Source: an uncultured archaeon (GTDB lineage: Archaea; Iainarchaeota; Iainarchaeia; Iainarchaeales; VGJJ01). Taken from it: a stretch of DNA of 63,451 nucleotides. Below are positions 19,602-58,792 of this stretch, piece after piece. Every line of letters begins with the position of its first letter. Within the stretch, counting starts at the first letter, position 1. The stretch is taken from NCBI GenBank assembly GCA_964363635.1, contig CAYIIU010000003.1, positions 1 to 63,451 of the forward strand. Direction: 5' to 3'. Position numbers and translations under genes: made by a program. Under the pieces are notes generated by a model that saw only the letters and a list, made by a program, of their open reading frames with translations, searched no databases and was not told the origin of the DNA.

Positions 19602-19728
19602 AATGTTTTTTCCAAGGCTTTTCCACAAAAAGGCCGAATTACACTTACAAAAGTTCACCCCTTTTGTCAGAATAACACATATCTCGGAGCGGGCGAAGGC
19701 TCACGCCCCTCCAACCCTCAAATTTTTG

Positions 19729-19818: not shown

Positions 19819-19944
19819 ATTTGATAAAACGCCTACATAAGGATTTGTGGGCAAACCCTCAACAGTAGTCTGCCGAACGACCAAATGGATAATTTGGGCA
19901 AAATTTCCCCTAGTTTTAAACCTTTTTCGGTCGCATGAGAAAGA

Positions 19945-20127: not shown

Positions 20128-20128
20128 C

Positions 20129-20560
20129 ATGCCAAAAATAATCAAACGAAAAAAGAAAAATAATGAAAATGCAGGCCAAGTGTCTGTTGAAGCATTATTG
20201 CTTTGGGCCGCACTTGCAGGAATGCTCGCACTTTTTACACCAGCATTCGCGCACGCGATGGATGCATACACGCTTCTAGCACGCACAAACCAGTATACTG
20301 CGTTTTCAGATGAACTGGAGAAAAATATGGAGTGGCTATCCTTCTCCGCGCCCGGAAGCCAAGTGCAAATGCGCGTTCCCGACATAGAGGGAATGGAAAT
20401 AACCATTTTGGTGGATGAAATTGACATCGAATTCGATGACGATTCGTTTTCACACACGAAAACAAGGACCATTGCCTCACCAATTCCCATCGAGGGGGAA
20501 ATTATCTTGGGAGAAACAATCACATTGCTTCGCGAAGAAGATAAAATCACCATTCGATGA
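20129..20560 (+). CDS. pilin-like protein (class III signal peptide)
   Basis: MPKIIKRKKKNNENAGQVSVEALLLWAALAGMLALF. The ATG at 20129 lies directly after the upstream stop (20125-20127). Confidence 0.65.
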   Translation: MPKIIKRKKKNNENAGQVSVEALLLWAALAGMLALFTPAFAHAMDAYTLLARTNQYTAFSDELEKNMEWLSFSAPGSQVQMRVPDIEGMEITILVDEIDIEFDDDSFSHTKTRTIASPIPIEGEIILGETITLLREEDKITIR

Positions 20561-20867
20561 GAATGTATTGGCTTTCCAACGTTCCATTATGCATGCGCTG
20601 GGCAAAGCAAGCCACCGAATGCATTTTTTGTGGAAAAATAGGAATAGTGGAGAATGAAACCACGGAAGATGGAAGAATTTCATGCGCGACGGAGGGCAAA
20701 TTGCCTTCTCCCAGCAGCCAAACACCCAGTAAATCGCTGCACGCGACTTCGGGAAGCAAGGATGTGGAATTATTCGCTGTGGGAAACGAATGTGAAACAA
20801 AATAAAAACTGGAAAAAAGCAAAAGGGCAATAATCAATTCAAATAAAAGAAAAAATCCTTTACGCAC
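20547..20867 (-). CDS. pilin-like protein
   Basis: The N-terminus MRKGFFLLFELIIALLLFSSF is prepilin-like. GTG start overlapping the upstream stop. Confidence 0.55.
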   Translation of the reverse strand: MRKGFFLLFELIIALLLFSSFYFVSHSFPTANNSTSLLPEVACSDLLGVWLLGEGNLPSVAHEILPSSVVSFSTIPIFPQKMHSVACFAQRMHNGTLESQYILIEW

Positions 20868-21312
20868 AGGAAATCACATCCAAAAAAACGGATTCCATTG
20901 CAGAAGAAAGAAATATGGGACGGCGGACACTCGCACATGTTTCATTTTCATCCACCGCACGAGAAAAATAATTGACATCAAATGAAATATGATGAAGTGA
21001 AACACGTGCAATAAGGGTTGAAGGAGCGCCTGCCGATGAAAGATTCTGCAAACACGATTCGCTCAACACGTATGAACGTACGCGCTGGAGTGCATCATCA
21101 AAAACCGCACAACCTTTCCAAGGTTGCGTGTGATGCGTTAAAATGAGTGCGTCGCTCAACGCGATGCTTGTTTCCAGCGCGCGGGATTTTTTCCATTCCC
21201 CAAGTTGTGCGTTCACATGTTGAGCGGAGTCGGACCAAACGACGCTCAACACGAGCATCCACGCGAGGAAAAGAAGGAAGGCCTCGACGCCCAACAAATG
21301 GCCCCTACCCAT
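20860..21312 (-). CDS. pilin-like protein
   Basis: The N-terminus is MGRGHLLGVEAFLLFLAWMLVLSVV. Confidence 0.55.
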   Translation of the reverse strand: MGRGHLLGVEAFLLFLAWMLVLSVVWSDSAQHVNAQLGEWKKSRALETSIALSDALILTHHTQPWKGCAVFDDALQRVRSYVLSESCLQNLSSAGAPSTLIARVSLHHISFDVNYFSRAVDENETCASVRRPIFLSSAMESVFLDVISCA

Positions 21313-21583
21313 AGTGATTGGAATCCCCTCCTAAAACAAGCAGAAAAGAAGAATGGGGCTGGTTTAACGCATAAGCGTAGTCGAGGCAGTCCCGTGAAGA
21401 GGCAAGAACAAAATGGTTCACGGCCGCATCCGCGAGGGAGCTGCACCGCAATGCTGACCATTTTTCCAGTAAAACTTTTTGGGCGTTTTCGGATGCGAGG
21501 CGATGGTCATCGATGACAGTGGCAAAAAATGCCAGCACTCCGAGCAGCGCGGAGAAAATTAAAATAAATTCAAGTGTTTGCAT
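21305..21583 (-). CDS. pilin-like protein (short)
   Basis: The internal ATG at 21583 gives MQTLEFILIFSALLGVLAFFATV. The upstream part of the track ORF overlaps the preceding gene. Confidence 0.45.
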   Translation of the reverse strand: MQTLEFILIFSALLGVLAFFATVIDDHRLASENAQKVLLEKWSALRCSSLADAAVNHFVLASSRDCLDYAYALNQPHSSFLLVLGGDSNHYG

Positions 21584-22157
21584 GCAAAATTTCTCCAGCG
21601 CAGGGCCAATCTTTTTGGAAAGTGGTGGTGCAGATGCGATAACCAATAGGAAGAGCGAATAATGTGTTAGCATCGCGCGAACGGATGCGCATGTGGAGAA
21701 CATTCGTACCAAACAATCCGCCGGTGTAGGAATATTCGCCGTAGCGTTCAACCTGCGAAACAGGAAGAACTAAAACGTGCGACGCGGAATGAAATGAAAG
21801 CAAATTGGCAGGAGTTTGCGGAGAAAAAAAGAGCGAAAGATAATTGGTTTGTGCGAGTACGGAAAAACCTGTTTCATAATGGAATGAATCATCGTGCGCG
21901 ACTTCAACACTGGACAAATAATCCAGCACGCGCTGGTTGATATTCACCTTAATGGTTTCCGGAGGAAGATTGGCGAGCAAACCTGCATGCAATTCGCCGC
22001 GAATAATGGCATCAACGTTTGTTTCCATCTCGAAGCGGCGGAAGGAGAGGTGGCGAATAACAGCGTCATCAAATGCAGGGACGGGCCAAGAGGAGGATAG
22101 TGCAATAATGGGAGCGAGGAGAAGAAAGAAGAAGAATGAAACGAAGCCTTTAGACAT
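21570..22157 (-). CDS. pilin-like protein
   Basis: The ATG at 22157 gives MSKGFVSFFFFLLLAPIIAL. The track start at 22178 is TTG. Confidence 0.55.
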   Translation of the reverse strand: MSKGFVSFFFFLLLAPIIALSSSWPVPAFDDAVIRHLSFRRFEMETNVDAIIRGELHAGLLANLPPETIKVNINQRVLDYLSSVEVAHDDSFHYETGFSVLAQTNYLSLFFSPQTPANLLSFHSASHVLVLPVSQVERYGEYSYTGGLFGTNVLHMRIRSRDANTLFALPIGYRICTTTFQKDWPCAGEILHANT

Positions 22158-22408
22158 AAAGGGTTGGGTGAGGGGCAATAACTAAAAACATAGGGAAAAT
22201 TTTGCCCCAATTCCATGCCCGATTCCATACGGGGCCGGAAGTCGCCGGCCGCGCGACCTCTTTTTCGCGAACCTTTTCCTAAAAGGCTCGGGCACTCGGA
22301 TTTTCGCCAACCTTTGCTTGCAAAGGTTGAGGGCCACTCGGAGGTAGGGCCCCTGCTTCGCAGGAGCCCAGACGAACGCATAATAAGGCTTTTTGACGTT
22401 TAACACGT

Positions 22409-29636: not shown

Positions 29637-30443
29637 ATGGCAGCGAGCAAAAAGACATCGGAAAGCAAAGGGCACGTTTCGAGTACGATTAATTTTGACG
29701 CACTCCAGGCTACACTTGAAAATGCCGTGAAGAAAAACACTCCCAACAAGGAAAAATTCGGCATTGCATTTTCGGGTGGATTAGACTCGGGAACGATTGC
29801 ATTTTTGGCTGGAAAAATTTCGAAAAACGCTGTGCTATTATGCGTGGGTTTTCCGGGAAGCTCCGATTTGAAAAGAGTACGGCCGCTGGCAAAGAAAATG
29901 AAGATGAAACTGGTTGTGCATGAATTGAATGAAAAAGAAATGATAGAAAATTATGCGCACGCGAAAAAGATTTTGAAGACTGATGATAAATTACAGTGCA
30001 CGCTCGGAGCAGTCAATTTGACCATTGCAAAATTGGCGCACGACGAAAAATTGACGCACGTTTTCGTGGGGTCGGGAGCAGATGAACTGTTCTGCGGATA
30101 CGGAGCATTTGACAAATGCCGCGGCGATTCGGACGCGTGCGAGAAGCTGCGCACGGAAAAGATGACGAATGTGCATGAGCATGATGTGAAACGGGAAATT
30201 CGATGCGCAAATGAATATGAAATCACGTTGCACGCACCCTATTTAGATGAAACATTTGCCGCACTTGCGTTGAAAGTTCCGGCACTGGAAAATTTACAAG
30301 GAAAATACGGGCATGTTCGGAAGAACACCCTTCGCGTGCTGGCCGAAAAAATGGGCGTTTTGAAAGAAATCGTTCATGCACCCAAAAAAGCCATGCAGTA
30401 TGGGAGCGGCACCCAAAAAGCGATTAAACGCAGCATCAGGTAA
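29637..30443 (+). CDS. asparagine-synthase-C-domain-like PP-loop ATP pyrophosphatase (no glutaminase domain)
   Basis: IAFSGGLDSGTIAFLAG (SGGxDS PP-loop) and FVGSGADELFCGYGAF. The start is uncertain (29538, 29556 or 29637), and the track start at 29388 is TTG inside lrp. Confidence 0.7.
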   Translation: MAASKKTSESKGHVSSTINFDALQATLENAVKKNTPNKEKFGIAFSGGLDSGTIAFLAGKISKNAVLLCVGFPGSSDLKRVRPLAKKMKMKLVVHELNEKEMIENYAHAKKILKTDDKLQCTLGAVNLTIAKLAHDEKLTHVFVGSGADELFCGYGAFDKCRGDSDACEKLRTEKMTNVHEHDVKREIRCANEYEITLHAPYLDETFAALALKVPALENLQGKYGHVRKNTLRVLAEKMGVLKEIVHAPKKAMQYGSGTQKAIKRSIR

Positions 30444-31056
30444 AAACTTGGCTGACATCCAGCTTTGAATATGGAGTGCTCCCGGGCAAAGAGTTGCTTC
30501 CAAGGACATCAAACACTTCCACGTTGCAATTCACGAACGATGGGGTAATGACAATATTCTTGTGAATGACAAATGGACGGGAAACCGTTAGTGAACTGTT
30601 GGAGGATGCGCGGGTGCAGGACAAAATACCATACGCGCGTTTATCATCGCGAACGGAAGGGGATGTGAGCGCAAGGCCTTCGAGGCGGTTCTGCATATAC
30701 ACACTCAAATTGACGTCGCAGTTGGTGCCAAAATTCGTATTCATGTAGAGCGTGGCGTTGTCCCAATAGGCTTCAACGGCGTCATTGAATTCCAGCGTAT
30801 CATAATTGGTTGGAACACAGTTGGGACCAGGAGGAGGAAGCTGGGTCGCTATTTTTTGGAGAATAGCATCCGAAGCAAAATTCTCCAATGCATTGCGGAC
30901 CATAAACCAATCTTTGGAAAGCGATTGGCTCACGACGCCCAATTCGGCCGAATGAAATTGGGTGTTGTACTGCACGGATTGGGAATAAAAAAAAGAAATG
31001 AGAAAAATGACCGCGAAAGCAGACACAAACACCGAAAAGAAACCGCGGGAAATCAT
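30436..31056 (-). CDS. pilin-like protein (class III signal peptide)
   Basis: The ATG at 31056 gives MISRGFFSVFVSAFAVIFLISFF. ATGA overlap with the upstream gene. Confidence 0.6.
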   Translation of the reverse strand: MISRGFFSVFVSAFAVIFLISFFYSQSVQYNTQFHSAELGVVSQSLSKDWFMVRNALENFASDAILQKIATQLPPPGPNCVPTNYDTLEFNDAVEAYWDNATLYMNTNFGTNCDVNLSVYMQNRLEGLALTSPSVRDDKRAYGILSCTRASSNSSLTVSRPFVIHKNIVITPSFVNCNVEVFDVLGSNSLPGSTPYSKLDVSQVFT

Positions 31057-31367
31057 GGGGACTCCACGCACACTGTCTGCACGGCCCAATCAAACTGGTC
31101 TGTGGGATCGAGGGGCGTTGTGGTGACGAGGGGACGGAAACCAATGTCGCAGGCGCAGGATTTGAGAGAAGCAGAACAACTAGAAGAACCATCAGGTCCT
31201 CCGTAAAACCATGCGACAACCGCATCCTTGGCTTGAATTTGAAGCAATTGTTGCGCGGGAGAATACATGGGTTTGGATGCATGAATCAGAAGTGAAAACA
31301 ATAACACGACGACAATGGCGCCATAGACCATGTCAACCGAAAAAACAAATCCGCGCACGTTAAACAC
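31053..31367 (-). CDS. pilin-like protein
   Basis: MFNVRGFVFSVDMVYGAIVVVLLFSLL. GTG start with an 8-nt overlap with the upstream gene. Confidence 0.55.
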   Translation of the reverse strand: MFNVRGFVFSVDMVYGAIVVVLLFSLLIHASKPMYSPAQQLLQIQAKDAVVAWFYGGPDGSSSCSASLKSCACDIGFRPLVTTTPLDPTDQFDWAVQTVCVESP

Positions 31368-32091
31368 CCCACACGCGGAAGTTCAAATCCGTCAAATATT
31401 GAGGGCAAAGACCATCCATGCATTCGCGCAAATCCCCTGCAGAAGGATGAAATGGAAAAATCAGCATCCGGCGCTGAATCATTAAATAGGGGTTTCCACG
31501 AATATTAGGCGTCAAAAAACGAAGGGTGCTTCCATCGGAGAGCAAGGCATTCATATCAATGTAAAAATCAGAAGAAAGACCCAGCTGCGGAGGGCGAACG
31601 GAGCTGCGGCTATCTATTATACAATTTTCTAAGCTTGAAAGTTCATTATCGTACAACCAGCCGCGGGGATAGTATGTCAAGGAAGGGGCAGGGGGAAATC
31701 CAGGCACGTGAGGAGGGAAGGTTGCCTTAAACTCTGCATTGGGACCGCAGCGAGCGTTGAATTGTGAAGGAAAAACATCAAGAACATCACAATCCGGATC
31801 GGGGACCGTATCGCCGCAGATGGAGGTAGAGCCCAAAAAATTACAGCGGTTAGGATCACCGTCGGGAATACCATAACATTCGGGCGGAGTGAACTGCACG
31901 AGAAAATCGCTCCGGCTAACTAAATTATTGGAACCCAGCAAGGCTTCGGAAAGCAGCTGGCGGGAATTCCTCTCCTGCTGGCCGTAAAAAATAGATAATT
32001 CGGAACTGCTCAAAATGAGACCGATGGCCAACGTGAAAATAGCCGCCGCCAAAACCACATCGAGCGACCAAAATTGTCCGCGGGAATTCAT
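31360..32091 (-). CDS. pilin-like protein (class III signal peptide)
   Basis: The N-terminus is MNSRGQFWSLDVVLAAAIFTLAIGLIL. Confidence 0.65.
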   Translation of the reverse strand: MNSRGQFWSLDVVLAAAIFTLAIGLILSSSELSIFYGQQERNSRQLLSEALLGSNNLVSRSDFLVQFTPPECYGIPDGDPNRCNFLGSTSICGDTVPDPDCDVLDVFPSQFNARCGPNAEFKATFPPHVPGFPPAPSLTYYPRGWLYDNELSSLENCIIDSRSSVRPPQLGLSSDFYIDMNALLSDGSTLRFLTPNIRGNPYLMIQRRMLIFPFHPSAGDLRECMDGLCPQYLTDLNFRVWGV

Positions 32092-32606
32092 GGCTTGACC
32101 TCGATGGAGAATGCATCAAAACATCCAGCAACATTGAACGAATGATTGTCATCATAGTTGGAATGAATAATAGTAATAGAATTCACATCGATATCGTAGG
32201 TAAGGCCGGCGTCGACTCCGCGCACCAACGCATGAAAATTAATCTCGGAAGCATTAATATCCCAATCGACGGAACAAGGAATGCCCGGCTGCGTTCCAAC
32301 AGCGCGAACCGTTTCAAGCAACGTGATGCCGGTGGAACGAACATTCTCATCCAAATAAATGGGCAAAAGAGACCCAACGAACAGGGAAGCGGTGGGCGGA
32401 TACTCGCCTGCCTCATAATAGTAACCTCCCGCATACGAGGCCAACCAATGTATCTGCTGCAGGTTTTCCCGAACCTGCTGACGAATAGAAATTTCTTTCT
32501 GCACATCTTCAAAACGATCCAAGACACTCGAAAAAACATTCAGCACGATAAGCAGGACGAGGAGAGCCAACAATAAATCCAATCCTGACTGGCCTTTAGA
32601 ATGCAT
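32088..32606 (-). CDS. pilin-like protein (class III signal peptide)
   Basis: The ATG at 32606 gives MHSKGQSGLDLLLALLVLLIVLNVF. Confidence 0.65.
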   Translation of the reverse strand: MHSKGQSGLDLLLALLVLLIVLNVFSSVLDRFEDVQKEISIRQQVRENLQQIHWLASYAGGYYYEAGEYPPTASLFVGSLLPIYLDENVRSTGITLLETVRAVGTQPGIPCSVDWDINASEINFHALVRGVDAGLTYDIDVNSITIIHSNYDDNHSFNVAGCFDAFSIEVKP

Positions 32607-32701
32607 ACATCCCAAAACAACAATCTGCCGTATTTAATCATTCGGCCTCTATTGAAAAAAATACGGCACGGAAGGATGAAAACCGCCATCGAAAACGGCT
32701 C

Positions 32702-33670
32702 TTAATAAGGACCATAAAACCACAAAATAGACGGAACAAGAATAAACATTCCCGCATCGAGCGAAAGGTCAAACGATTGAAAGACGCGGCGAAGGGAATA
32801 AGAAGCCAGGATTACCCCGGCAGCCGAGAGACCGCCTACCAAAAAAACACCCAGCACTTGGAAAAGAACCCACCCATGCGGGGAAAACGAAAAAGAAAGA
32901 GGGTTGGAATGCTTCCACACGATAAATGTGAATACGATACACCCGCCAAAAACGGCCAGCAAAAAATACCAGGGAATAATGGTCACATCGCCCAACGACG
33001 CAGCCACGGCACTGCGAATCGAACCGTTCAATGAGGCTAAACCGATGCTGAAGACCAAGTTGCTCACTCCCATCGAAAGAGATGCGCGGCCGGAAAGCCA
33101 ACCCACATTCACGAGGCCGGGGCCCACACCCGGAAGGAGGCCTGAAAAACAACCAATGCATGCATCGCGGATTTTTTGAACGCGCGAATGGCGAACATAA
33201 ATGGAATGGCGCGTCCACGAGACGCCCCACCACCCCAAAAAGAACGCAGGAAGAACCGCTGACACCACGCGTTCGTGCAGGAGCCACCAGCCCGAGATTA
33301 GCAGAATAATTCCACCAATCCCATTCAACGGACTTTTTGGAAACGAAGCCCAAAACCAAAAAAATACCGCTAGAAGCAAGATAGGAAAAACAAAACCATC
33401 CAATGAACTATTAGAAAAAAATTGCGAATAAACCAGCAAACCCACAAAAGCAATGAAAAAACCAACCAGAACATCCTCGCGAGAGGAATGCTCCTGCGAA
33501 AACAACGCATGAACCACCCCCACGGAAGCGAGGCCGATGACCAGCCACACCCACGCATTTCCGCCCAACACGGAAAACCAAATGAGCAGCGGAAAAATAG
33601 TGGGAAGACCCAGACGCGTGAAAAAAACGCCGATAAAAACGCCGCACGCCAATTCAAGGAGCATCTTCAT
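32702..33670 (-). CDS. polytopic membrane protein inside the pilus locus (function unknown)
   Basis: At least 8 hydrophobic segments. The internal GLLPGVGPG string is faintly TctA/DUF112-like by eye only. Confidence 0.5.
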   Translation of the reverse strand: MKMLLELACGVFIGVFFTRLGLPTIFPLLIWFSVLGGNAWVWLVIGLASVGVVHALFSQEHSSREDVLVGFFIAFVGLLVYSQFFSNSSLDGFVFPILLLAVFFWFWASFPKSPLNGIGGIILLISGWWLLHERVVSAVLPAFFLGWWGVSWTRHSIYVRHSRVQKIRDACIGCFSGLLPGVGPGLVNVGWLSGRASLSMGVSNLVFSIGLASLNGSIRSAVAASLGDVTIIPWYFLLAVFGGCIVFTFIVWKHSNPLSFSFSPHGWVLFQVLGVFLVGGLSAAGVILASYSLRRVFQSFDLSLDAGMFILVPSILWFYGPY

Positions 33671-34028
33671 CACGCTCAACAAGAGAAAGGTGCATGGACT
33701 CTACAATGCATAATCGGCCGCGCGGCGTAAGCACCAGCGAGGCGCGGATGAAAAAATAATCATGCGGAAAAACAAACAATGATGAAGGAGGGTGCCTGAA
33801 ATAGCATGTAATGAGACCATTGTTCTTGACATCAAACACTAAACTTTCACCTGAAAAATGAGGACGCTCGACAAAACCGGAAAATTGAATCCGATGCGGA
33901 AGGGGGAGTGCAAAGGCTTCAGAGACAGAGGAAAGAGAGGAAACCGAATGCGTGTCCAGCGACTCCACCAACGCGCCAGACGCCACCGCTAGAACCAGCC
34001 AGCCCAGCCACGCATACTCCTCATGCAT
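33654..34028 (-). CDS. hypothetical membrane-anchored protein (possible OB-like fold)
   Basis: N-terminal helix WLGWLVLAVASGAL, then FSGFVERPHFSGESLVFDVKNNGLITCYF. Confidence 0.4.
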   Translation of the reverse strand: MHEEYAWLGWLVLAVASGALVESLDTHSVSSLSSVSEAFALPLPHRIQFSGFVERPHFSGESLVFDVKNNGLITCYFRHPPSSLFVFPHDYFFIRASLVLTPRGRLCIVESMHLSLVERDEDAP

Positions 34029-34072
34029 GAGCGCGTTGGGCGTGCAAAGAAATTAAAAGCTAGGGGAAAAAA

Positions 34073-35278
34073 TTATGGGACTACGACAAATGTGTCCGTC
34101 CGAATATTGTTCCCTTTATCAGCCGCCAATTCCTCACCATTAAAAACGGCGGGGTTACTGCCAATATAGTCAAAATGAGCAACATGGGAAATAGCAACGA
34201 GCTTGTAACTGGGACCGACTTGCAGGCCAAGGGCGGCAGGATTGATTAAATAATTATGCAAAATGGGCGGAGTCATATTTTCAATATTGACTGGGGGCAC
34301 ATTTTGTATAGCAAAAGCGGGCGAACTAGGGACCGCATACGATACCACCAGCGCATAGGCCTGCGGAATAACTGTGTCGTTAGGAGTACTCCCATATTGG
34401 ATTACATGCATTGTTGCAGCGGGGAATAATTTAGGGTTGGAAGGATTCAATAGTTCTTGGACCACCAAATCATATCCTGCAGGAGTATTGTCAATCCTCT
34501 CGCATAAATCATTTGAACCCGGCAAATCTTCGCAGATTGCAATGAGTTGTACAGAAGACATTCCAAGATAACTAGTATTGGCAAGAACGAGGTCATTTAG
34601 CTGAACACCTACTGTTGAAATCGAACTTTGTTGAATGGAAGAGGGTAGTGGTGTTAAAGCCGTGGAAAGGATATCCACATACGGCGAACCACCCGGCAAA
34701 CAACCAGTCGTGCTAATTAGTTGGCAGCTGTTGAGGCATGCCAAATTGCCGGTAGTGCCCGGCACCAACGAAGCGCACGTCGCTCCACCAAAATCAGATC
34801 CATCGCATATTTCAGGAGGAACCGCGGCGGGATCAATAACCCCATTTCCGCACCCGGGAGCAACCGGCGCCCCGCACGCCACGAGGCCGCCGCAATACGG
34901 ATTATCGGCATGGTCCCAATCGATCTGGACCTGAGAATACGAACGCAGCGATGCCACCGCATCGCACACTTGCATGCATCCGGGAGGGCGGCCATTCAAA
35001 CCGACCTGCAGTTCCTCATCGACATATCGGTCCCAATTTCCACTCGTGCGGACGTGAATTTTAATACCATTTCCAGCAAGGACCTCAGGAGTAACTTGAT
35101 TAATTTTTACGCGCAAGTTGCTTTTCTCGACGAATGGAAGAATGGCCAGCTTCGCCACGTACGCAGCGTTTGTTTTATTCTGGTTCTCAACATATGGAAT
35201 GACAATAGCGAGGACGACGACTAAAACAAACGAAACGACAAGCAATACTTCAATACTCGTTTGACCGCGTGTGTGCAT
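34073..35278 (-). CDS. large type IV pilin-like protein with Cys-rich repeat
   Basis: MHTRGQTSIEVLLVVSFVLVVVLAIV is a class III signal. The internal segment is CGNGVIDPAAVPPEICDGSDFGGATCASL...C...C. Confidence 0.75.
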   Translation of the reverse strand: MHTRGQTSIEVLLVVSFVLVVVLAIVIPYVENQNKTNAAYVAKLAILPFVEKSNLRVKINQVTPEVLAGNGIKIHVRTSGNWDRYVDEELQVGLNGRPPGCMQVCDAVASLRSYSQVQIDWDHADNPYCGGLVACGAPVAPGCGNGVIDPAAVPPEICDGSDFGGATCASLVPGTTGNLACLNSCQLISTTGCLPGGSPYVDILSTALTPLPSSIQQSSISTVGVQLNDLVLANTSYLGMSSVQLIAICEDLPGSNDLCERIDNTPAGYDLVVQELLNPSNPKLFPAATMHVIQYGSTPNDTVIPQAYALVVSYAVPSSPAFAIQNVPPVNIENMTPPILHNYLINPAALGLQVGPSYKLVAISHVAHFDYIGSNPAVFNGEELAADKGNNIRTDTFVVVP

Positions 35279-35280
35279 GA

Positions 35281-35856
35281 TTAGCTCGCATTAAAATCAA
35301 TAATATAACGGAAATTGCCGCTCGAAAAATAACGGCCTGCCATTCTAAAAGTCTGCGTAAAACCGGACTGGCCGACATCCAGAGTAAATGACGCATCGGG
35401 GGCCGCATCGCCTTGGCAGCGAAGTTCAACAAAAGAAGGAAAGACAAAATCTTTAGAGCAAAGCATGGCAATAGCGGGGTCGGAAGGATTTTCAACGCAA
35501 TCCGCAGGCGCCTGTCCGGTGGCATCAAACACGTCCGAATTCAATGGAAAAGTAATGCCGACATTTTTACCGTTGTTGTTGCAAAAGAATGTGCTTCCCT
35601 TGGGAAGATAAATATCCACAATTTGGCGGGAATCGCCCGGAATAATAGTCATGTTGCTGATGGAAGAAGCAATGACCTTCAACCCCGCGTCTGCAAAACC
35701 AACCTTACTCACATCATCCATAGCGAATTGCACGCGCTGGCCCAAGGGGACAACGACCGCAGCCATAATAACGAGCATGAAAATGAGGACGAGAATGAAT
35801 TCTAAACTGGCTTGGCCGCGCGAACCGGACGAAGCAAAACGCATCGTGGTTTTCAT
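35281..35856 (-). CDS. type IV pilin-like protein
   Basis: MKTTMRFASSGSRGQASLEFILVLIFMLVIMAAVVV. ATGA overlap with the peptidase stop. Confidence 0.75.
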   Translation of the reverse strand: MKTTMRFASSGSRGQASLEFILVLIFMLVIMAAVVVPLGQRVQFAMDDVSKVGFADAGLKVIASSISNMTIIPGDSRQIVDIYLPKGSTFFCNNNGKNVGITFPLNSDVFDATGQAPADCVENPSDPAIAMLCSKDFVFPSFVELRCQGDAAPDASFTLDVGQSGFTQTFRMAGRYFSSGNFRYIIDFNAS

Positions 35857-36986
35857 GAGACCCAACCCCATGCCAGAGGACCATCGCCCAAAGCATTCAA
35901 CAAAACATACGCGAGCAACACGGCGGGAGCGAAGGGAGCGGAGGCTTTGACTTTAATCGTGTCATCCAACAAGCCTTCTTTTACCGCGTGTTGCAACTTG
36001 GCAATCTGATCGGGATACACTCCCGCGGCCTGCCGCGGGTCCGCCCACGATTCTCCGGAAGGATGGATGATGCGCATAATGGTTCCTAAATCACGGTCCA
36101 TTCCTGCCTTAATAATGGTTTTGAACGAGACGCTACGTTCACGCACGACTTTCCCGTCTTTCAAGCCAATCCACTCGCCGGGAATGTCCCCGTCTTGCAA
36201 ATCGGAAATTTTCTTCCGTGCGGAGAGTACGTGGCGCTGAGCAAAACCATACCACGCGAGCAAAAAATTGACTAGGAGCAAAACACCCAAAACAGATGGA
36301 ATGAGACCCCATGAAATAGCCGAAGTAAGAATTCCAAACACAGAAAGAAAGGCCAACCCCTTCCGAATCACACCCGGAACAAAACCCGCTGCGAGCAATA
36401 CGAGAATAAGGAATAGGGGAGAAACAGAAAGCTGATTCAAGACGTGCGTGAACAAGACGATCAACAAACCCCATTCGAGCGCACGCAGAAAAGCGTCGCG
36501 TGTGATTTGCACAAACTCTTTTCGATGGGATTTATGGTTAAGAACGGTGAAAGCGAGAAAGGCGGAGTAGGGCATGAGCGCGATGACACTGCCCATGAAC
36601 AAATTGAGCATGAAAAAAGGCAGTGTGCTTGCCACGATGAGTTCACGTCCGCCGAAAACAAATGAAAAATGAAAAAAAGAGCCCAGAACAAACGGATTGA
36701 ATGGATTCAGCGCCGCGAGGCCGGTGAAAAGTTTGACGTCCCCTCCCGCCCATGCTCCCGCGCGCCAAAAGATGTACGCAAGGATGAACACGGCAATAGT
36801 CAATACCGCAGACCATGCTAAGGGGGATATGGATTGCGTGAAATAGGATTCATACGCCGCAAGACTCAAACCAAGAACAATCATCCCGTACGAAACCCAA
36901 TCGGGAATGATGCGCTCCTTGAAATCCGTGTACGTGGAAATGGATAATCCGACAATTGAAAGAAGAAACGAAACGAGCGGAAACAC
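35853..36986 (-). CDS. A24-family prepilin peptidase (PibD/EppA/FlaK-like) with an inserted soluble domain
   Basis: Two catalytic Asp contexts, YTDFKERIIPD and AWAGGDVKLF. A hydrophilic segment of about 90 aa sits before the last helix. GTG start. Confidence 0.8.
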   Translation of the reverse strand: MFPLVSFLLSIVGLSISTYTDFKERIIPDWVSYGMIVLGLSLAAYESYFTQSISPLAWSAVLTIAVFILAYIFWRAGAWAGGDVKLFTGLAALNPFNPFVLGSFFHFSFVFGGRELIVASTLPFFMLNLFMGSVIALMPYSAFLAFTVLNHKSHRKEFVQITRDAFLRALEWGLLIVLFTHVLNQLSVSPLFLILVLLAAGFVPGVIRKGLAFLSVFGILTSAISWGLIPSVLGVLLLVNFLLAWYGFAQRHVLSARKKISDLQDGDIPGEWIGLKDGKVVRERSVSFKTIIKAGMDRDLGTIMRIIHPSGESWADPRQAAGVYPDQIAKLQHAVKEGLLDDTIKVKASAPFAPAVLLAYVLLNALGDGPLAWGWVS

Positions 36987-36990
36987 GGGG

Positions 36991-37167
36991 CTAATCCCCC
37001 AAGAAACTCGTCACGGTGGCGATGCGGAACTCTTCAATATTCTTTTCCGCCACTTGAGCAATGCCAACGACTTGGAAAGCCAGCAGCGCGGCGATGGTGG
37101 CGAGGACTACTCCAAATGCGACCGTGAGGAGGTACTCCAATGCAATCTGCGCGCGCTGTTCCATCAT
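36991..37167 (-). CDS. small type IV pilin (58 aa), not in the ORF track
   Basis: My translation is MMEQRAQIALEYLLTVAFGVVLATIAALLAFQVVGIAQVAEKNIEEFRIATVTSFLGD, from ATG 37167 to TAG 36991-36993. Confidence 0.75.
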   Translation of the reverse strand: MMEQRAQIALEYLLTVAFGVVLATIAALLAFQVVGIAQVAEKNIEEFRIATVTSFLGD

Positions 37168-37236
37168 GTGGGGGTGTCTGCCTAAAATGTTAAAAAAAAA
37201 TATTGCTGCCGCGGCTGCGCGGCAACAACCTATGAA

Positions 37237-37407
37237 TTAGGGAAAGTTCCCTGTGATCTGGTGTTTGAACGTATTGATGTTGTTGTTGATAATCGTGTTC
37301 GTCTGTCCGGTGGAACCAATGATGATAAGCAACACAATCGTCGCGATGAGCACCGCACCTCCAATCAATAAGAGATATTCGAGAGCTCCTTGTCCTTTTT
37401 GATCCAT
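37237..37407 (-). CDS. small type IV pilin (56 aa), not in the ORF track
   Basis: My translation is MDQKGQGALEYLLLIGGAVLIATIVLLIIIGSTGQTNTIINNNINTFKHQITGNFP, from ATG 37407 to TAA 37237-37239. Confidence 0.8.
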   Translation of the reverse strand: MDQKGQGALEYLLLIGGAVLIATIVLLIIIGSTGQTNTIINNNINTFKHQITGNFP

Positions 37408-37425
37408 TTTTTTCCCTCCTCCTCA

Positions 37426-37590
37426 TTAGTTTGTCTGATTAATCACAGCATTCGACTGGTTCTGCAAATCCACTGACACGGTACTAAACACCCCTTTGAG
37501 GATTAATCCTGCAATGGTGGCGATGACAATGGCAATTCCCACGACCAGCAATGTTTCCATGGCCGTTTGACCGCGATTTTCATTCCACAT
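37426..37590 (-). CDS. small type IV pilin (54 aa), not in the ORF track
   Basis: My translation is MWNENRGQTAMETLLVVGIAIVIATIAGLILKGVFSTVSVDLQNQSNAVINQTN, from ATG 37590 to TAA 37426-37428. Confidence 0.75.
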   Translation of the reverse strand: MWNENRGQTAMETLLVVGIAIVIATIAGLILKGVFSTVSVDLQNQSNAVINQTN

Positions 37591-38522
37591 CAGAGACCCG
37601 ATCCTACGATGGTGCCAACCAGTATTTGCGACAGAAAGAATACTGTGTAAGCGAGCATAAGCAACAAAGGGATGTATAAAAGGCTTTTGGAAAGCTTGCC
37701 GTCGCGCATCGCCCCAATCATCACGGAAGCGGCCACGGCGATGATGAAAATGTACCCTTTAATGGCAAAAATAATCATGTCACGCGCCCCTTTCACTTTG
37801 GACAAATCCGCACCCGTGACGGCACCCGTGTTGGCGGATGTGCGAATCAAAAAGTCAATAACCACGGAAACTAATCCGAAAATGAACGGCGCCACCATCA
37901 CTCCCGCAGCGACCATAAAAATAACCTGCAAAATGGTTTTGGATTTCCGCTCCGCGGAGATCCGGTTCATTTCACGCACATCCTGCGAAATATCATCCAG
38001 AATTTCAGCGAGCTGCGCACCCGCACGGACGGTGTCTACAATAATCGTAATAACACGCCCAACGAGACGCGAATCCACATTGCGCGTGAGCGACAAAAGA
38101 GAGTTTTCAAAATTCTCGCCCTCTTCCAACTTTCGCAATACTTTTTTCATCTCATCCGAAAGGGGGCCGTACTGCGCCGAGGCCACTTCACGCAGCGCGT
38201 ACTCGTACGTGGAGCCCGTTTTGAGCGTGTCGGAGATTTGCTTCAACGCATCGGGAAGAGCCTCTTCAATGGCATCGATGCGCGAACGGCCCTTAATGTA
38301 TGGGTAACCCACCATGGCATCAAGCACAATGGCAAACGCCAAGATGCCCAACAGGGGTTCGTTGATTTTAAGTATGGCCGAACCGGCGAACACGAGCAAA
38401 CCCAATGCGAGCGCTGCGATGAAGGAGCCCACGAGCCAGAGCAGAGGTGGAACATCCAAGTTGGCCTGCTGCATGTAATAGGCGTACTTCTCCAATGGTG
38501 TTTTTTTTTCAAAGATCCCCAT
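37590..38522 (-). CDS. T2SSF-domain platform protein (TadC/EpdK-like)
   Basis: ALPDALKQISDTLKTGSTYEYALREVA...LSDEMKKVLRKLEEGENFENSL is a T2SSF repeat, flanked by TM helices. Confidence 0.8.
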   Translation of the reverse strand: MGIFEKKTPLEKYAYYMQQANLDVPPLLWLVGSFIAALALGLLVFAGSAILKINEPLLGILAFAIVLDAMVGYPYIKGRSRIDAIEEALPDALKQISDTLKTGSTYEYALREVASAQYGPLSDEMKKVLRKLEEGENFENSLLSLTRNVDSRLVGRVITIIVDTVRAGAQLAEILDDISQDVREMNRISAERKSKTILQVIFMVAAGVMVAPFIFGLVSVVIDFLIRTSANTGAVTGADLSKVKGARDMIIFAIKGYIFIIAVAASVMIGAMRDGKLSKSLLYIPLLLMLAYTVFFLSQILVGTIVGSGL

Positions 38523-38543
38523 AAAACTATCAACTCACATACC

Positions 38544-39734
38544 CTACACGCGCGGCTGGCTGATATACAAATAGTACGCCAGACCTCCCAGCAATGAGGG
38601 CATAATCAAAAAATAAAAAATGAGAACAATCGGAGGCGTGAGCGGGAGGCTTACTCCCAACGGAAGACCACCGTTGACAATCGCCGCCATGACACCCACA
38701 AAAACGGGCATGACGATTCCCATGAAAATGAAAATGACTCCGAAAAAATTTAATTTTTCCGAATAGTCGCGCACTTTCATACGCAGGTCGAATGAAACAT
38801 CGCTCGCAATGGTTCCCATAATCTCCGAAAGGTTTCCACCCGTGCGCAAGGCGCGCATAATATGCCGCAACGCATTGGCAAGAGGCTTCGACTGCGTGCG
38901 CGCGGCAAAATGACGCAGCGCATCTTTTGTATCCGTCCCTTCTTCAATCTCCGAAATCGTACGCGTAAATTCCTGCGAGAGCACCCCATAATCGGCCTTG
39001 GCAATGGTTTGAAGGGTTTTATACAACCCGATTCCGGCGCGCAGCTCGGTAGCCATATGCCGGAGTGCGAATGGAAGTTCAGTAGAGCAAATATCCCCGC
39101 GCTTTTGGGCATTGGATTGAGGAATAATAAAACCCACAAAAATGGCTACGAGCATGAGAAAAAACGCCCCAAAGAAGGGAATGATGTATGAAAGAGCAAC
39201 GACGGTCGGGCTTAGCACCTGCTGGCGCTGCTCCGCCAGATAGCGCAAAAGGAGGAAGAACAATTCTCCAAACGAAAAAGAGACGATAAGGACAATGACG
39301 GAAACGACTGAAATGAGCGCGACCCATTGCTTAGGAGAATAGGGCATGTTGGCCGAGTACAAATAATAATTCAGCGACTTCATTTGGGGAAGCGTCTCCA
39401 TAAATTTTCCAATGCGCTCAAACAGACCATGCAGAGAAAAATACAAGTGTCCAAGGATGCGGATGTAGGGGGATTTTCCATCACGCAGGGATTCGACACT
39501 TTGCACCTCTACATTTTTTTGACCCGAACCCGAAATAATCCCCTTCAGCTCGCCCAACTTTCCTTCCACTTCATTGAACTCCAACCCTTCCGTGCGGTAT
39601 TTTGATTTCATCCTATTTACAATGGTATCAATCTCACGGTCGGAAAGCTCTTCCTGAATCTCGTCTGCTGCAGAAAACTTTTTCTTTTTCTCCTCGATGC
39701 GGGAACGGATGCCGGAAAACTCTTCATTAGGCAT
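38544..39734 (-). CDS. T2SSF-domain platform protein (TadB/EpdJ-like)
   Basis: LPFALRHMATELRAGIGLYKTLQTIA...SQEFTRTISEIEEGTDTKDAL plus TM helices. Confidence 0.8.
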   Translation of the reverse strand: MPNEEFSGIRSRIEEKKKKFSAADEIQEELSDREIDTIVNRMKSKYRTEGLEFNEVEGKLGELKGIISGSGQKNVEVQSVESLRDGKSPYIRILGHLYFSLHGLFERIGKFMETLPQMKSLNYYLYSANMPYSPKQWVALISVVSVIVLIVSFSFGELFFLLLRYLAEQRQQVLSPTVVALSYIIPFFGAFFLMLVAIFVGFIIPQSNAQKRGDICSTELPFALRHMATELRAGIGLYKTLQTIAKADYGVLSQEFTRTISEIEEGTDTKDALRHFAARTQSKPLANALRHIMRALRTGGNLSEIMGTIASDVSFDLRMKVRDYSEKLNFFGVIFIFMGIVMPVFVGVMAAIVNGGLPLGVSLPLTPPIVLIFYFLIMPSLLGGLAYYLYISQPRV

Positions 39735-42136
39735 TAGACATTCTCCAAAAAATCCCGAGACAATTGAGAGACGGTTTTCATATCGCGCACGTTCCTATCC
39801 ACCAGACCTTGAAGGAATCGTTCGCGTCTTTTTAACTCCCCTTGCATTTCGACCTGAGTTTTACCCGTTAATTGAGCCAACCGCTCAAAATATTTCACAG
39901 GCATGTTGGTGCGGGACATTTCGTCCTTGACCGCATCCCACTCAAACACGGTTTCGGTGCGGGCCTTTCCCTCCAACACGCCGTGAACCTCGGCAATCTC
40001 CATGATTCTACGATATGTCCCGCGCTGCGAAGAATGAAATAAGTTCTCAACGATGACAAAATTCAAACCCGAAAGCATGACTTCAGGAACACTCATGGGA
40101 GGACTGGTTACGCGTACAAGGGTTTCCTGCGCCGAATTGGCATGAATCGTTCCCATCGAATTACCTACAATTATCCCCTCGGCCACAAAATTATGGGGCA
40201 TTTTCCCTGTTTCGTTGGATTCGTTTACCGTTAGATCATACACGAAACCAGAATAAGATTTCACATCAATTGAAACAATTTCATCCATGACAACATCCGA
40301 ATCCAAAACGGAGTCGCCCAAAAAATTCTGTGTCCAATCACTTATATCATTTTCGATACGCAGTGGACAAGCAACGTGCTGACCAATAACTAATGTTTCT
40401 GCTAATCTCCGAACGATTTTCTCTTCAAAACAATAAAACGGATGATTTCCCGTCGCAGTAATTTCGTTACCAGAAGCCAATTTTATATGGTATACCATTC
40501 CTTCAAACGGCTTACGACGAGCCTGCACAATGGAAGACCGGAATAGTTTCCCATTGGAATCAATCGAAGTAATGTGCTCATTCTCAATCGAACAAACATC
40601 CCATTCGCCTTCTTTCCATGAAGAATGGTCCAGTTTTGAATCGACAAACGAACCGATTTCCAAGATACCGGATGTAAGGGGTATTTTGGCATCTCCAATC
40701 AAACAACCATCGTGACCCGTGTTCATCGCGGTGAACAGGGAGAACGCTTCATCATGGCGGACTTCACCCACAATGATTCGGTCCGGGCGCATACGCAAAC
40801 TATTTTTGGTGAGAATGTCCAAGGTTATTTCTCCCTTTCCTTCCAAACCGGGAGGGCGGCCTTCCAAACGAATCCAGTGGCGCAATGGCAACGAGAGTTC
40901 GGACGTGTCTTCAATGGAAATAATACGCTCATTCGAGGGAATGAAGGAACACAAGACGTTCAATAAGGTTGTTTTTCCCGAAGAGGTTCCTCCGGAGATG
41001 AGAATGTTGGCCGGCTGCGTTCCAAGACCATCCACGCACAACCACAAAAAAGCGGCCACATCCACGGAGAGCGTTTTGTAATTGATTAAATCAACAATCG
41101 AATACGGGTCCGAGCGGAACTTTCGAATGGTGAGAGTTGAACCGGACACCGAGGCGGGGGGAATCGTCGCATTGACACGCGAACCATCCGGCAAACGAGC
41201 ATCCAAGAGAGGGGAAGAAATATCCACGCGACGCCCAACCTCACGGGCAATTCGATTAACCAAATCCTGCACTTCATTGTCGTTTGTGAATTCCACATTC
41301 GTAATCATCATGTCGTATTTGCGGTGAAACACATACACGGGAACATTTGGACCTATTACCATGATTTCTTCGAGCTTATCATCCTTGATCAGGGAGTCAA
41401 TGAGACCATACCCGACCATCTCCGATACCACGGCCTGCGCATAAAAATCAAACTTGGTGGAAGGAACTTTCAATTCGGGAGACGCACGCAAAATCTCCAA
41501 CACCTGCTGCGCGTACACATTTCTTTTTTGCTCCGGGTCGCGAATACGATACGGGGTAATACTGATGAGCCGCGTCGCAGCCTCTTTGAGCGTGTTGATG
41601 ATGGCCCGCTCACTCACGGTGGGACGTGCCACTGGAATGGTGTAATACATGAGGGGCTCGCCCTGCACGCGGTAAATTTTGGCGTCGCCATACTCATCGA
41701 TAAGCGTTTTCGGCTTGTCCGACATCAACTGTTCAAACGTGTCGACTTTTCCTTTGGACATTTCCTGCAATTGCTGCACGACTTTAGAAGGCGAAGCAAA
41801 CGCGGAGGACGTGGGACGAGGAGCAATATCCTTATCGGGAGTGGGAACAAATTCAGGAATGGAAATAGAAGCCGTTTCGACACGCGACTCCATACGTGCA
41901 ACGGGGGAAACGGAAGGAATCCCTCCGGCAGAAGTGTAGGATGAAGGAGGAACAAACCCAGTGTTTCCCGAACTGGAACGAAGGGCGTTGATTTTACGCA
42001 CCAACTCGTCAATGTTTTCTCCCGCAGGAGCGGCAGGAATTTCGGTTTTGACGGAAGAAACCTTAGGCTTCAATGAAGCGGGGGAACTACCCGATGGAAC
42101 GAGCGGTTTTACTTGGAGAGAGGTGTTTTCACTCAT
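39734..42136 (-). CDS. CpaF/TadA/VirB11-family type IV filament assembly ATPase, intein-containing precursor
   Basis: Walker A ISGGTSSGKTTLLN, Asp box/Walker B RPDRIIVGEVRHDEA, and a His-box AMNTGHDG...SMGTIHAN split by 182 aa. The N-terminal extension of about 140 aa is S/P-rich. Confidence 0.9.
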   Translation of the reverse strand: MSENTSLQVKPLVPSGSSPASLKPKVSSVKTEIPAAPAGENIDELVRKINALRSSSGNTGFVPPSSYTSAGGIPSVSPVARMESRVETASISIPEFVPTPDKDIAPRPTSSAFASPSKVVQQLQEMSKGKVDTFEQLMSDKPKTLIDEYGDAKIYRVQGEPLMYYTIPVARPTVSERAIINTLKEAATRLISITPYRIRDPEQKRNVYAQQVLEILRASPELKVPSTKFDFYAQAVVSEMVGYGLIDSLIKDDKLEEIMVIGPNVPVYVFHRKYDMMITNVEFTNDNEVQDLVNRIAREVGRRVDISSPLLDARLPDGSRVNATIPPASVSGSTLTIRKFRSDPYSIVDLINYKTLSVDVAAFLWLCVDGLGTQPANILISGGTSSGKTTLLNVLCSFIPSNERIISIEDTSELSLPLRHWIRLEGRPPGLEGKGEITLDILTKNSLRMRPDRIIVGEVRHDEAFSLFTAMNTGHDGCLIGDAKIPLTSGILEIGSFVDSKLDHSSWKEGEWDVCSIENEHITSIDSNGKLFRSSIVQARRKPFEGMVYHIKLASGNEITATGNHPFYCFEEKIVRRLAETLVIGQHVACPLRIENDISDWTQNFLGDSVLDSDVVMDEIVSIDVKSYSGFVYDLTVNESNETGKMPHNFVAEGIIVGNSMGTIHANSAQETLVRVTSPPMSVPEVMLSGLNFVIVENLFHSSQRGTYRRIMEIAEVHGVLEGKARTETVFEWDAVKDEMSRTNMPVKYFERLAQLTGKTQVEMQGELKRRERFLQGLVDRNVRDMKTVSQLSRDFLENV
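40160..40705 (-). mobile_element. mini-intein (182 codons) in the pilus ATPase
   Basis: It starts at Cys478 (TGT, 40703-40705; CLIGDAKIPL). It has ITATGNHPFY (TxxH-like block B) and GFVYDLTV...HNFVAEGIIVGN ending in Asn659 (AAT, 40160-40162), followed by Ser+1. Excision restores GHDGSMGTIHAN. Confidence 0.8.
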
Positions 42137-42507: not shown

Positions 42508-42930
42508 ATGCACCGAATCATGCTATTCAGACTTGGAACAAGGGACGTCCACCTGCCCAAACTATTTGGAGCATTCATTATGTTAGGAGCGGCCATGATG
42601 ATGGTACAAAGCCTCGCAGGAATGTTCGATTCGTGGGAAAACGTGCACGCAATACACGCATGCATTGATGCGGCGAACACGGAAACGGTCTCGATTCAGG
42701 ATTGCCAGACGATTGCATATTACGGACTCGGAATTTTACTCCGCGCCAATCAATACCGCTTGACGGATTTGCAAGTCGTGAGCGGATTACTCCCGCATGT
42801 GGCGAACGTATTCTTCTGGGTCGGAGGATTTATCATCGGGCTATTGCTTTACCGCTCATGGAGAATTTTGATTCCCATTGAAGAAAGCATCACCAACATC
42901 CGCACGCCGCGATGGAAGAAGAAACGATAA
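42508..42930 (+). CDS. hypothetical membrane protein
   Basis: The ATG at 42508 gives MHRIMLFRLG..., with helices LFGAFIMLGAAMMMV and VFFWVGGFIIGLLLY. The track start at 42424 is TTG. Confidence 0.45.
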   Translation: MHRIMLFRLGTRDVHLPKLFGAFIMLGAAMMMVQSLAGMFDSWENVHAIHACIDAANTETVSIQDCQTIAYYGLGILLRANQYRLTDLQVVSGLLPHVANVFFWVGGFIIGLLLYRSWRILIPIEESITNIRTPRWKKKR

Positions 42931-51850: not shown

Positions 51851-51867
51851 AAACCCAAAAATAAACA

Positions 51868-58790: not shown

Positions 58791-58792
58791 CT

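Follow-up and report, generated by a model that had tools for sequence, protein, structure and literature searches.

What is a pilus for when its operon also encodes, between the pilin genes, a membrane-anchored OB-fold protein and a polytopic protein of a transporter family? The question is raised by a stretch of DNA of 63,451 nucleotides from an uncultured archaeon of the Iainarchaeota (NCBI GenBank assembly GCA_964363635.1, contig CAYIIU010000003.1), which was analysed over its whole length and is called the window in what follows. At 30436-42136, on the minus strand throughout, the window carries a 15-gene pilus operon, delimited by open reading frame (ORF) coordinates, Pfam matches and synteny. 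On balance, we lean towards the view that this is an Epd-like pilus operon with an embedded OB/TctA pair that serves DNA uptake.

The gene pair inside the pilus operon

A first-pass annotation, made from the letters of the window, had described the locus as a type IV filament array and had listed the roles of two of its products, a 124-residue anchored protein and a polytopic membrane protein, as unknown. Profile comparison and, for the first of them, a structure model now place these proteins in the OB-fold family and, as a strongly derived member, in the TctA family, respectively. Their genes are the following:

33654..34028, minus strand: membrane-anchored OB-fold protein, 124 amino acids (aa), from its AlphaFold 2 (AF2) model, Foldseek and hhalign
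32702..33664, or to 33682, minus strand: derived TctA-family (DUF112-like) polytopic protein, from hhalign to a PF01970-positive family

The AF2 model of the 124-aa protein (predicted local distance difference test score, pLDDT, of 82) consists of an N-terminal transmembrane (TM) helix, residues 3-27, and a five-stranded OB barrel; the soluble OB domain covers about residues 30-115, and two cysteines are invariant. The best Foldseek matches of this model were RPA32/14, the OB domain of ExoVII, the anticodon OB domain of AspRS and Stn1/Ten1 (E~1e-4, probability 1.0), and hhalign gave 93.9% when the family of the 124-aa protein was compared to the PF01336-positive OB family that occupies the same position in other Iainarchaeota. 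The flanking charges suggest that the OB domain probably faces outwards.

The TctA-like protein, whose gene overlaps the OB gene, is 320 aa long if translation starts with the ATG (33664) and 326 aa long if it starts with the TTG (33682), and retains the LPGxGPG, SNLVFS, VRS and C-terminal PSILWFY motifs. Its family aligned over the full length with the PF01970-positive Iainarchaeota family (hhalign 96.7%, E 3e-10); every control, whether a cross-control or a comparison with one of three further membrane-protein families of these loci, stayed below 1.5%. These profile comparisons support homology of the polytopic protein to the TctA family, though in a strongly derived form. The relationship is seen only when family is compared with family. 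When the polytopic family was set against one TctA sequence, hhalign aligned the LPGxGP motif only (3.6%). With the profile of the polytopic family, HMMER retrieved 20 proteins from 1.84 billion representatives, and these form one narrow family with no bridge to TctA.

The comparison set consisted of 80 loci from species-representative genomes, retrieved with the platform-protein profile; orthologues of single genes were counted over 85 related loci, the core gene order over the 60 distinct loci whose downstream sequence was long enough, and the OB/TctA pair over the 36 loci with at least 7 kb of downstream sequence. In 32 of these 36, the TctA-like gene lies on the same strand as the platform genes and 2.7-6 kb after them, and in 31 the OB gene stands directly upstream of it. 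Distant Iainarchaeota have at the same position a PF01336-positive OB gene, a gene for a protein of ~395 aa that matches the whole PF01970 profile (1.6e-43) and, usually, a JAB-domain gene. The canonical TctA-like form is thus ~395 aa long (for example at 19189-20394 of comparison locus L004), as compared to ~320 aa in the subclade of the window. In the window, as in its subclade, the pair has pilin genes on both sides.

Two further observations were made around the pair. The subclade that has the shortened TctA-like protein has also acquired, downstream of the pair, four additional pilin-like genes. Moreover, in most Iainarchaeota loci a Prok-JAB gene (MPN metalloprotease-like) directly follows the TctA-like gene (18198-18578 in L002, 20401-20766 in L004), giving an OB-TctA-JAB triad.

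The core of the operon (ATPase, T2SSF, T2SSF, three short pilins, A24 peptidase and the 196-aa pilin-like protein) was found in the same order in 60/60 distinct Iainarchaeota loci, and the complete order of 15 genes in about eight genomes, with 27-56% identity for the downstream genes. The conserved order, together with the conserved signals described below, indicates that the array is made of genes under selection and not of chance ORFs. All the ORFs previously listed in the array were recovered at their coordinates on the minus strand, and the close packing that had been described, with overlapping genes, is borne out by spacings of -37 to +86 bp; the count of 17 genes was instead in error, as that list itself sums to 15 and no gap is big enough for an extra gene. 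Complete genomes of the Iainarchaeota group measure ~1.0-1.2 Mb, and the relatives of the ATPase carry the names Candidatus Diapherotrites or Iainarchaeum, which places the window in a DPANN archaeon of this phylum.

A functional indication comes from Methanococcus maripaludis, where a transposon screen, clean deletions and complementation showed that MMJJ_13020 as well as MMJJ_13030 is indispensable for natural transformation (PMC10133366). The first is an OB-fold protein with a single TM helix and the second, encoded by the adjacent gene, has 11 TM helices and is termed a 'TctA family protein'; transformation in this organism likewise requires the Epd pilus genes, and a TctA homologue is essential for it in Methanoculleus too (PMC10133366). 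The authors of that study put the TctA-like protein forward as the missing DNA transporter of archaea. As in Methanococcus, a small gene for a single-TM OB-fold protein stands in the window directly upstream of a polytopic TctA-family gene, and the canonical Iainarchaeota members belong to the same Pfam families, PF01336 and PF01970. Unlike the pair of the window, which is within the pilus operon, that of Methanococcus lies away from the pilus genes. By analogy with these genetic results, a role of the locus in DNA uptake may be proposed, as a possibility to which we give slightly less than equal weight. That the Iainarchaeota possess a complete competence machine in a single operon, made of an Epd-like retractable pilus, an OB-fold receptor for DNA and a DNA channel of the TctA family, is suggested somewhat more tentatively.

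The filament and its motor

The remaining genes of the operon are listed here in the order of transcription; a slash marks the predicted cleavage site of prepilins.

39734..42136, minus strand: CpaF/TadA/EpdL-like secretion ATPase (Pfam T2SSE 1e-39)
40160..40705, minus strand: 182-aa mini-intein in the His box of the ATPase (Pfam Intein_splicing 5e-17; NCBIfam intein N- and C-terminal models)
38544..39734, minus strand: platform protein 1, 396 aa, single T2SSF (Pfam T2SSF 5e-20)
37590..38522, minus strand: platform protein 2, 310 aa, single T2SSF (Pfam T2SSF 4e-17)
37426..37590, minus strand: short pilin, 54 aa, MWNENRG/QTAMETLL (Class_IIIsignal 6e-4, sub-threshold; in 60/85 loci)
37237..37407, minus strand: short pilin, 56 aa, MDQKG/QGALEYLL (Class_IIIsignal, PF04021, 5e-7, above the gathering score)
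36991..37167, minus strand: short pilin, 58 aa, MMEQRA/QIALEYLL (cleavage motif; in 77/85 loci)
35853..36986, minus strand: EppA-like prepilin peptidase, 377 aa (Pfam Peptidase_A24 5e-14, Arc_PepC 5e-7; GGDVKL motif)
35281..35871, minus strand: pilin-like protein, 196 aa, ..SRG/QASLEFILV (orthologues in 60 distinct loci, motif in 57; no Pfam family)
34073..35278, minus strand: pilin-like protein, 401 aa, MHTRG/QTSIEVLLV (conserved pilin residues 1 to ~135)
32088..32615, minus strand: pilin-like protein, 175 aa, ..SKG/QSGLDLLL (motif in 9/10 orthologues)
31360..32091, minus strand: pilin-like protein, 243 aa, MNSRG/QFWSLDVVL (motif in 16/17 orthologues)
31053..31367, minus strand: pilin-like protein, 104 aa, ..VRG/FVFSVDM (motif in 9/9 orthologues)
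30436..31089, minus strand: pilin-like protein, 217 aa, ..SRG/FFSVFVS (motif in 7/7 orthologues)

The Pfam searches confirmed all the domains that had been expected at the first pass, namely T2SSE, two T2SSF, Peptidase_A24 and Class_IIIsignal. Each of the two adjacent platform genes encodes one T2SSF domain, and the two proteins, which are mutually homologous (hhalign 99.5%), are colinear with the halves of a fused platform. Platform protein 1 matches residues 55-245 of the 484 of NCBIfam UpsF, which is the N-terminal half of fused FlaJ/UpsF; platform protein 2 matches residues 192-462 of 465 of ArlJ and 271-478 of 484 of UpsF, which is the C-terminal half. This order is the reverse of the tadB-tadC assignment by Denise et al. 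(PMC6668835). No sequence relatives of the two T2SSF proteins were found in the PDB. An exact copy of platform protein 1 is present on an independent contig from groundwater of Hainich well H52.

The three tandem pilins of 54-58 aa and the A24 peptidase that follows them, both part of the earlier description, were confirmed by Pfam matches and cleavage motifs. The short pilins have Gln at +1 and Glu at +5, and two of them show the Flp-like pattern G/XXXXEY. This pattern is typical of bacterial Flp pilins. The 56-aa pilin is the most conserved of the three (42-84% identity in 78/85 loci) and is likely to be the major pilin. The peptidase scored 62.9 bits with NCBIfam EppA, with its residues 5-363 aligned on positions 4-328 of the 334 of the model (cutoff 450), and 42.7 bits with FlaK, on the N-terminus only; a match with FlaK in the PDB had an E-value of 2e-5.

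In all nine pilin-like proteins of the operon, as had been claimed for them, a short charged leader that ends in [KR][GA] precedes a strongly hydrophobic helix, so that no putative pilin lacks a cleavage-type motif. Gln is found at +1 in seven of the nine, and Glu or Asp at +5 or +6 in seven. For the six larger proteins, in the order of the list, the class III motif plus the +1 residue is kept in 57/60, 14/16, 9/10, 16/17, 9/9 and 7/7 orthologues. The 196-aa protein is a minor-pilin candidate that is found phylum-wide. The gene of the 217-aa protein ends the array, facing an AsnB-like gene that is transcribed convergently.

The 401-aa protein differs from its 16 orthologues, which are only 114-189 aa long and align with it between residue 1 and residue ~140. 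The rest of the protein (residues ~136-401, about 265 aa) is lineage-specific and consists of a Cys-rich stretch and a P/N/S/V-rich domain; no homologues of this extension were found by BLAST in the 85 loci, in Pfam or by sequence search of the PDB. It contains ten cysteines, including a CGNG...C...C stretch, and the whole protein has four N-glycosylation sequons. The possibility that the extension is an assembly artefact was ruled out, since a second, independent assembly has, on one of its contigs, an identical gene between the same neighbours. The extension is therefore a recent, real addition, and the 401-aa protein is a plausible candidate for a tip adhesin.

The ATPase is 800 aa long with its intein and 618 aa when spliced, with an N-terminus of ~150 aa that is disordered. 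It shows a Walker A motif (GGTSSGKT) and a His box, MNTGHDG/SMGTIHAN, in which the slash stands for the mini-intein (residues 478-659). The first-pass assignment to the CpaF/TadA-like T2SSE ATPases is supported, and what it overlooked is the intein, 182 of the 800 residues. The hallmarks of the element, checked on the translation, are an N-terminal Cys (CLIGD...), the block B TxxH in the form TGNH, the end IIVGN and a Ser at +1. Gly takes the place of His at the penultimate position, both here and in all full-length homologues at the same site, and no homing-endonuclease domain was found in the 182 aa. Once spliced, the ATPase aligns without gaps to CpaF and FlaI across the junction.

At the same insertion site, the relatives have a 460-aa LAGLIDADG intein (many of them), a mini-intein or none, and the intein of the window corresponds to the 460-aa form less residues ~124-410. 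The closest relatives, with exteins 88-92% identical, have no intein. This distribution is consistent with the usual pattern of invasion, decay and loss. In some other homologues (P0108, P0112), the mini-intein begins with Ala or Met in place of Cys. The pilus motor needs intein splicing to function; the presence of full-length, mini and empty states among relatives is usable as a population marker, and is otherwise a minor curiosity.

With all its components considered, the locus is very probably an Epd-like type IV pilus operon (System 1, or clade 1). The Epd-like and Tad clade is defined by two single-T2SSF platform genes (fission), unusually short major pilins and a similar gene order (Denise et al., PMC6668835), and the long EppA-type peptidase is restricted to organisms with a clade 1 system (Makarova et al., PMC4858521). 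Reports of System 1 cover methanogens, Thermococcales and DPANN archaea (2026 survey, bioRxiv 10.64898/2026.04.22.720090). The features of platform, pilins and peptidase, and the PDB ranking of the ATPase, agree with the split-platform reading, Epd in archaea and Tad in bacteria, already given at the first pass. For the spliced ATPase, the PDB sequences ranked CpaF (258.7 bits), afGspE, the GspE of A. fulgidus (244.1), and FlaI (196.6).

Against this assignment it must be said that the NCBIfam models ranked FlaI first for the ATPase, with a raw score of 298 (equivalog cutoff 550) as compared to 241 for the TadA family, both below cutoff, that the affinity of the ATPase is read from pairwise and profile scores, and that the form of subsystem 4A with two platform genes, said to occur in some DPANN loci, is an alternative. 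All the proteins of the locus score far below the NCBIfam equivalog cutoffs (for example 72 vs. 400 for ArlJ and 43 vs. 330 for FlaK), which indicates a distant lineage of the Epd kind. A second ATPase (TadZ, FlaH or MinD/FleN-like) was not found, as no KGGxGK[ST] motif occurs in the 63 kb and no such family among the scanned flanking genes. Since this ATPase usually has a stand-alone gene elsewhere (Makarova et al., PMC4858521), its absence from the window is weak evidence.

When compared to the Epd pilus of M. maripaludis, whose components are spread over several loci, the window has ATPase, platform, major pilins and peptidase in one array; it also has the ATPase intein and the OB/TctA-like pair inside the operon, and no FlaH/MinD-like ATPase nearby. 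The bacterial Tad/Flp systems share with it the order ATPase, platform, platform (tadA-tadB-tadC), pilins of ~55 aa, a dedicated peptidase and larger pseudopilin-like proteins downstream, and CpaF is the best match among solved structures. Unlike these systems, the locus lacks, among its 15 proteins, the secretin RcpA, RcpB/C, TadD, TadG and TadZ, and its peptidase is of the archaeal EppA type with Arc_PepC. Hydrothermarchaeales, the closest non-DPANN relatives with respect to the ATPase, keep the order ATPase, T2SSF, T2SSF, short pilin. In loci of this and similar groups (10001-15539 of L087 and 10001-15556 of L088), ATPases of ~1040 aa, with T2SSE twice among their Pfam matches, are followed by two single-T2SSF genes and by an ORF of 69-76 aa. 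Neither the peptidase nor the OB/TctA pair adjoins these two loci; the linkage of the pair to the pilus is therefore not universal in System 1.

DNA uptake weighed against other functions

If the pilus and the pair work together in DNA uptake, the process might take place as follows. Splicing of the intein would yield the active hexameric ATPase, and the EppA-like peptidase would process the prepilins by cleavage after [KR][GA]. From the short pilins, the ATPase together with the TadB/C-like platform would then build a thin polymer, a filament that has no globular heads. As described for Caulobacter, CpaF alone powers both extension and retraction (PMC11300603, PMC12019362). The larger pilin-like proteins may prime or cap the filament, and the 401-aa one may display a lineage-specific tip domain. 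DNA delivered by the pilus would be captured by the outward OB domain and, by analogy with M. maripaludis, carried across the membrane by the TctA-like permease. In Liberibacter, uptake of DNA is supported by pili of the Tad/Flp type (PMC8513845), and the pili cited as serving bacterial transformation include Flp pili (Angelov 2015, as quoted in PMC10133366).

The proposed logic resembles that of bacterial ComEA/ComEC, a surface DNA-binding module and a polytopic channel downstream of a type IV pilus. ComEC itself has an N-terminal OB domain (DUF4131). The window pair has, unlike this similarity of logic, no sequence or fold relationship with the bacterial proteins: no match at E<=1 was found among the window proteins for the Competence domain (PF03772), DUF4131 or HhH. 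The idea of a ComEC split into the 124-aa and the polytopic protein was considered and rejected, as neither a Competence/DUF4131 match nor a fold match was obtained, and only the functional analogy is left. One relative gave a non-significant match with DUF4131 (E 0.16).

Several results weigh against a role in DNA uptake, or against the TctA assignment on which it depends. Neither the polytopic protein of the window nor its nine closest relatives has a direct Pfam match, and Foldseek gave no PDB fold match below E 0.1 for the AF2 model (pLDDT 77). The window copy belongs to a derived subclade: at 320 aa it is shorter than the canonical Iainarchaeota form, it has lost the N-terminal signatures (the TGLxPGIHxNT and HSF..LPGH motif regions), and it keeps only 20 of the 102 conserved columns of that canonical family. 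The JAB gene is absent from the window (tblastn, 63 kb) and from L010. The likeness to MMJJ_13020/13030 rests on shared Pfam families and on an identical two-gene architecture, and the other genes of the Methanococcus transformation set (MinD/ParA-like, thermonuclease, ArtE) were not found in the window; among the scanned flanking genes, the only nuclease is the repair nuclease NurA. In Methanococcus itself the pair is still a hypothetical DNA transporter, and the piliation of the mutants was not reported (PMC10133366). Finally, some Diapherotrites may be free-living and capable of making nucleotides (PMC6349945), and for this reason neither host attachment nor nucleotide scavenging can be assumed.

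These points leave room for a rival explanation that we consider unlikely, even if it is the one that survives best. The filament may be an Epd-like pilus used for adhesion only, and the OB/TctA pair an accessory of its biogenesis or anchoring, such as a membrane scaffold or a helper of pilin modification or export, with no DNA transport; the transformation defect of the Methanococcus mutants would then be an indirect result of pilus loss, which their unreported piliation allows. Attachment of M. maripaludis to surfaces by its Epd pilus is documented, the pair sits between pilin genes and is co-inherited with them across the phylum, as a structural accessory would be, and many motifs of the transporter family are gone from the TctA-like protein of the window. 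On the other hand, the OB fold specifically resembles those that bind nucleic acids (RPA, ExoVII, aminoacyl-tRNA synthetase anticodon domains, Stn1/Ten1), with PF01336 matched in relatives, and TctA-like proteins are in no list of pilus components given by surveys of type IV filaments (TFF). Moreover, the Methanococcus pair is encoded apart from the epd genes, and it was the sole membrane transporter to emerge from the transformation screen (PMC10133366).

A quite improbable explanation is that the TctA-like protein takes up some solute, for instance an organic acid, as in bacterial TctABC, and rides along with the pilus genes in a position without meaning. PF01970 is indeed named for a tricarboxylate transporter, and the canonical Iainarchaeota members match the entire profile. 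This explanation is contradicted by the absence of TctB and TctC, by the gene for a single-TM OB-fold protein that is always directly upstream of the TctA-like gene and overlaps it, and by the pilus linkage in 32/36 species-level genomes; archaeal TctA-like proteins lack TctB/C and have been argued to be functionally different (PMC10133366).

It is more improbable still that the locus builds a bindosome-like pseudopilus, which would show substrate-binding proteins with class III signals for nutrient scavenging. The 2026 survey proposes that archaeal TFF are widely functionalised by such proteins, and the 401-aa pilin has an extra domain; none of the nine pilin-like proteins (0/9), though, matches a solute-binding family, the BasE and BasF profile scores are far below cutoff, and no ABC transporter is encoded within the locus or beside it. 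The reading as an archaellum, or as some other filament for rotation or motility, is effectively refuted: the top raw score of NCBIfam FlaI (298 bits) and the label 'FlaI' given to homologues by JGI auto-annotation are outweighed by the distance of that score from its cutoff of 550, by a platform that is split and not a fused FlaJ, by a peptidase more EppA-like than FlaK-like, by an ATPase pairwise nearer to CpaF than to FlaI, and by the lack of any archaellin or FlaF/G/H match in the 15 proteins or in the scanned flanking genes, partners whose presence would have told against the original filament assignment.

Surroundings of the operon and meaning for the lineage

Outside the operon, two features may have to do with the pilus:

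19945..22178: second pilin-like cluster of six genes, for proteins of 60 and 148 aa on the plus strand and of 106, 150, 148(?) and 202 aa on the minus strand (class III motifs)
42508..42930, plus strand: small membrane protein with a 140-aa conserved core, divergent from the ATPase (64-94% identity, same position in eight relatives among the matches listed)

The six further pilin-like genes noticed at the first pass were accepted in part: five are plausible, with [KRN][GA] and then Q, F or H and a hydrophobic helix, and the one at 21305-21751 is doubtful. In the comparison loci, a homologue was found for the 60-aa gene only. On the basis of their motifs, the products of this cluster are probable further substrates of the same peptidase. 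The protein encoded at 42508..42930, which has no Pfam family, is better conserved than most pilus genes, and its gene may be associated with the pilus locus.

The second cluster is adjoined by a Peptidase_M50 gene (22409-22990, plus strand). In the Methanococcus transformation screen, one transposon insertion fell in MMJJ_13210, 'Peptidase family M50' (PMC10133366), a parallel that may be a coincidence. Just upstream of the cluster, at 17232-19262 on the plus strand, is encoded a predicted secreted protein of 676 aa without a Pfam family, which has a signal-like N-terminus, a long low-complexity centre rich in Gln, Asn, Gly and Pro, and a charged, coiled-coil-like C-terminal half. A DNA-repair cluster occupies 50768-61522, with NurA (50768-51850), HerA (52517-54073) and a Rad50/SMC-like gene (59159-61522); a Fic-domain gene (54096-55088) lies among these. 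Other genes of the window encode CDC48, NFACT, topoisomerase I, Lrp/AsnC, an AsnB-like PP-loop protein, DnaG primase and PTH2. In the 63 kb, Rfam matched only a tRNA fragment, cut by the window end (63397-63451), and neither a complete tRNA gene nor any other RNA gene; ARAGORN found none.

The pilus is in itself of a known kind. What appears to be undescribed is its fusion, at the level of the operon, with a candidate archaeal DNA-import pair, as our literature search found no paper that ties TctA-like proteins to DPANN archaea or to TFF loci. How DNA passes across the archaeal membrane during transformation is unexplained, since archaea have no ComEC, and the sole candidates have so far come from one Methanococcus transposon screen, in the form of OB-fold and TctA-like genes that are unlinked to pilus genes. 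The linkage in the Iainarchaeota provides guilt-by-association support from a distant lineage, in nearly every genome sampled, and the canonical ~395-aa and derived ~320-aa forms are natural variants that can be used for complementation and biochemistry.

If the reading as a DNA-uptake locus is true, the phylum-wide linkage would provide the first evidence from comparative genomics, independently of the genetic work in Methanococcus, that archaea have in the OB/TctA-like pair their long-sought counterpart of ComEA/ComEC, and the uptake of DNA, as genes or as nucleotides, would be a core trait of this DPANN lineage. A DPANN pilus presumed to be an organelle of host attachment would then be recast as a possible DNA-uptake device, with a bearing on gene flow and nutrient scavenging in ultra-small archaea.

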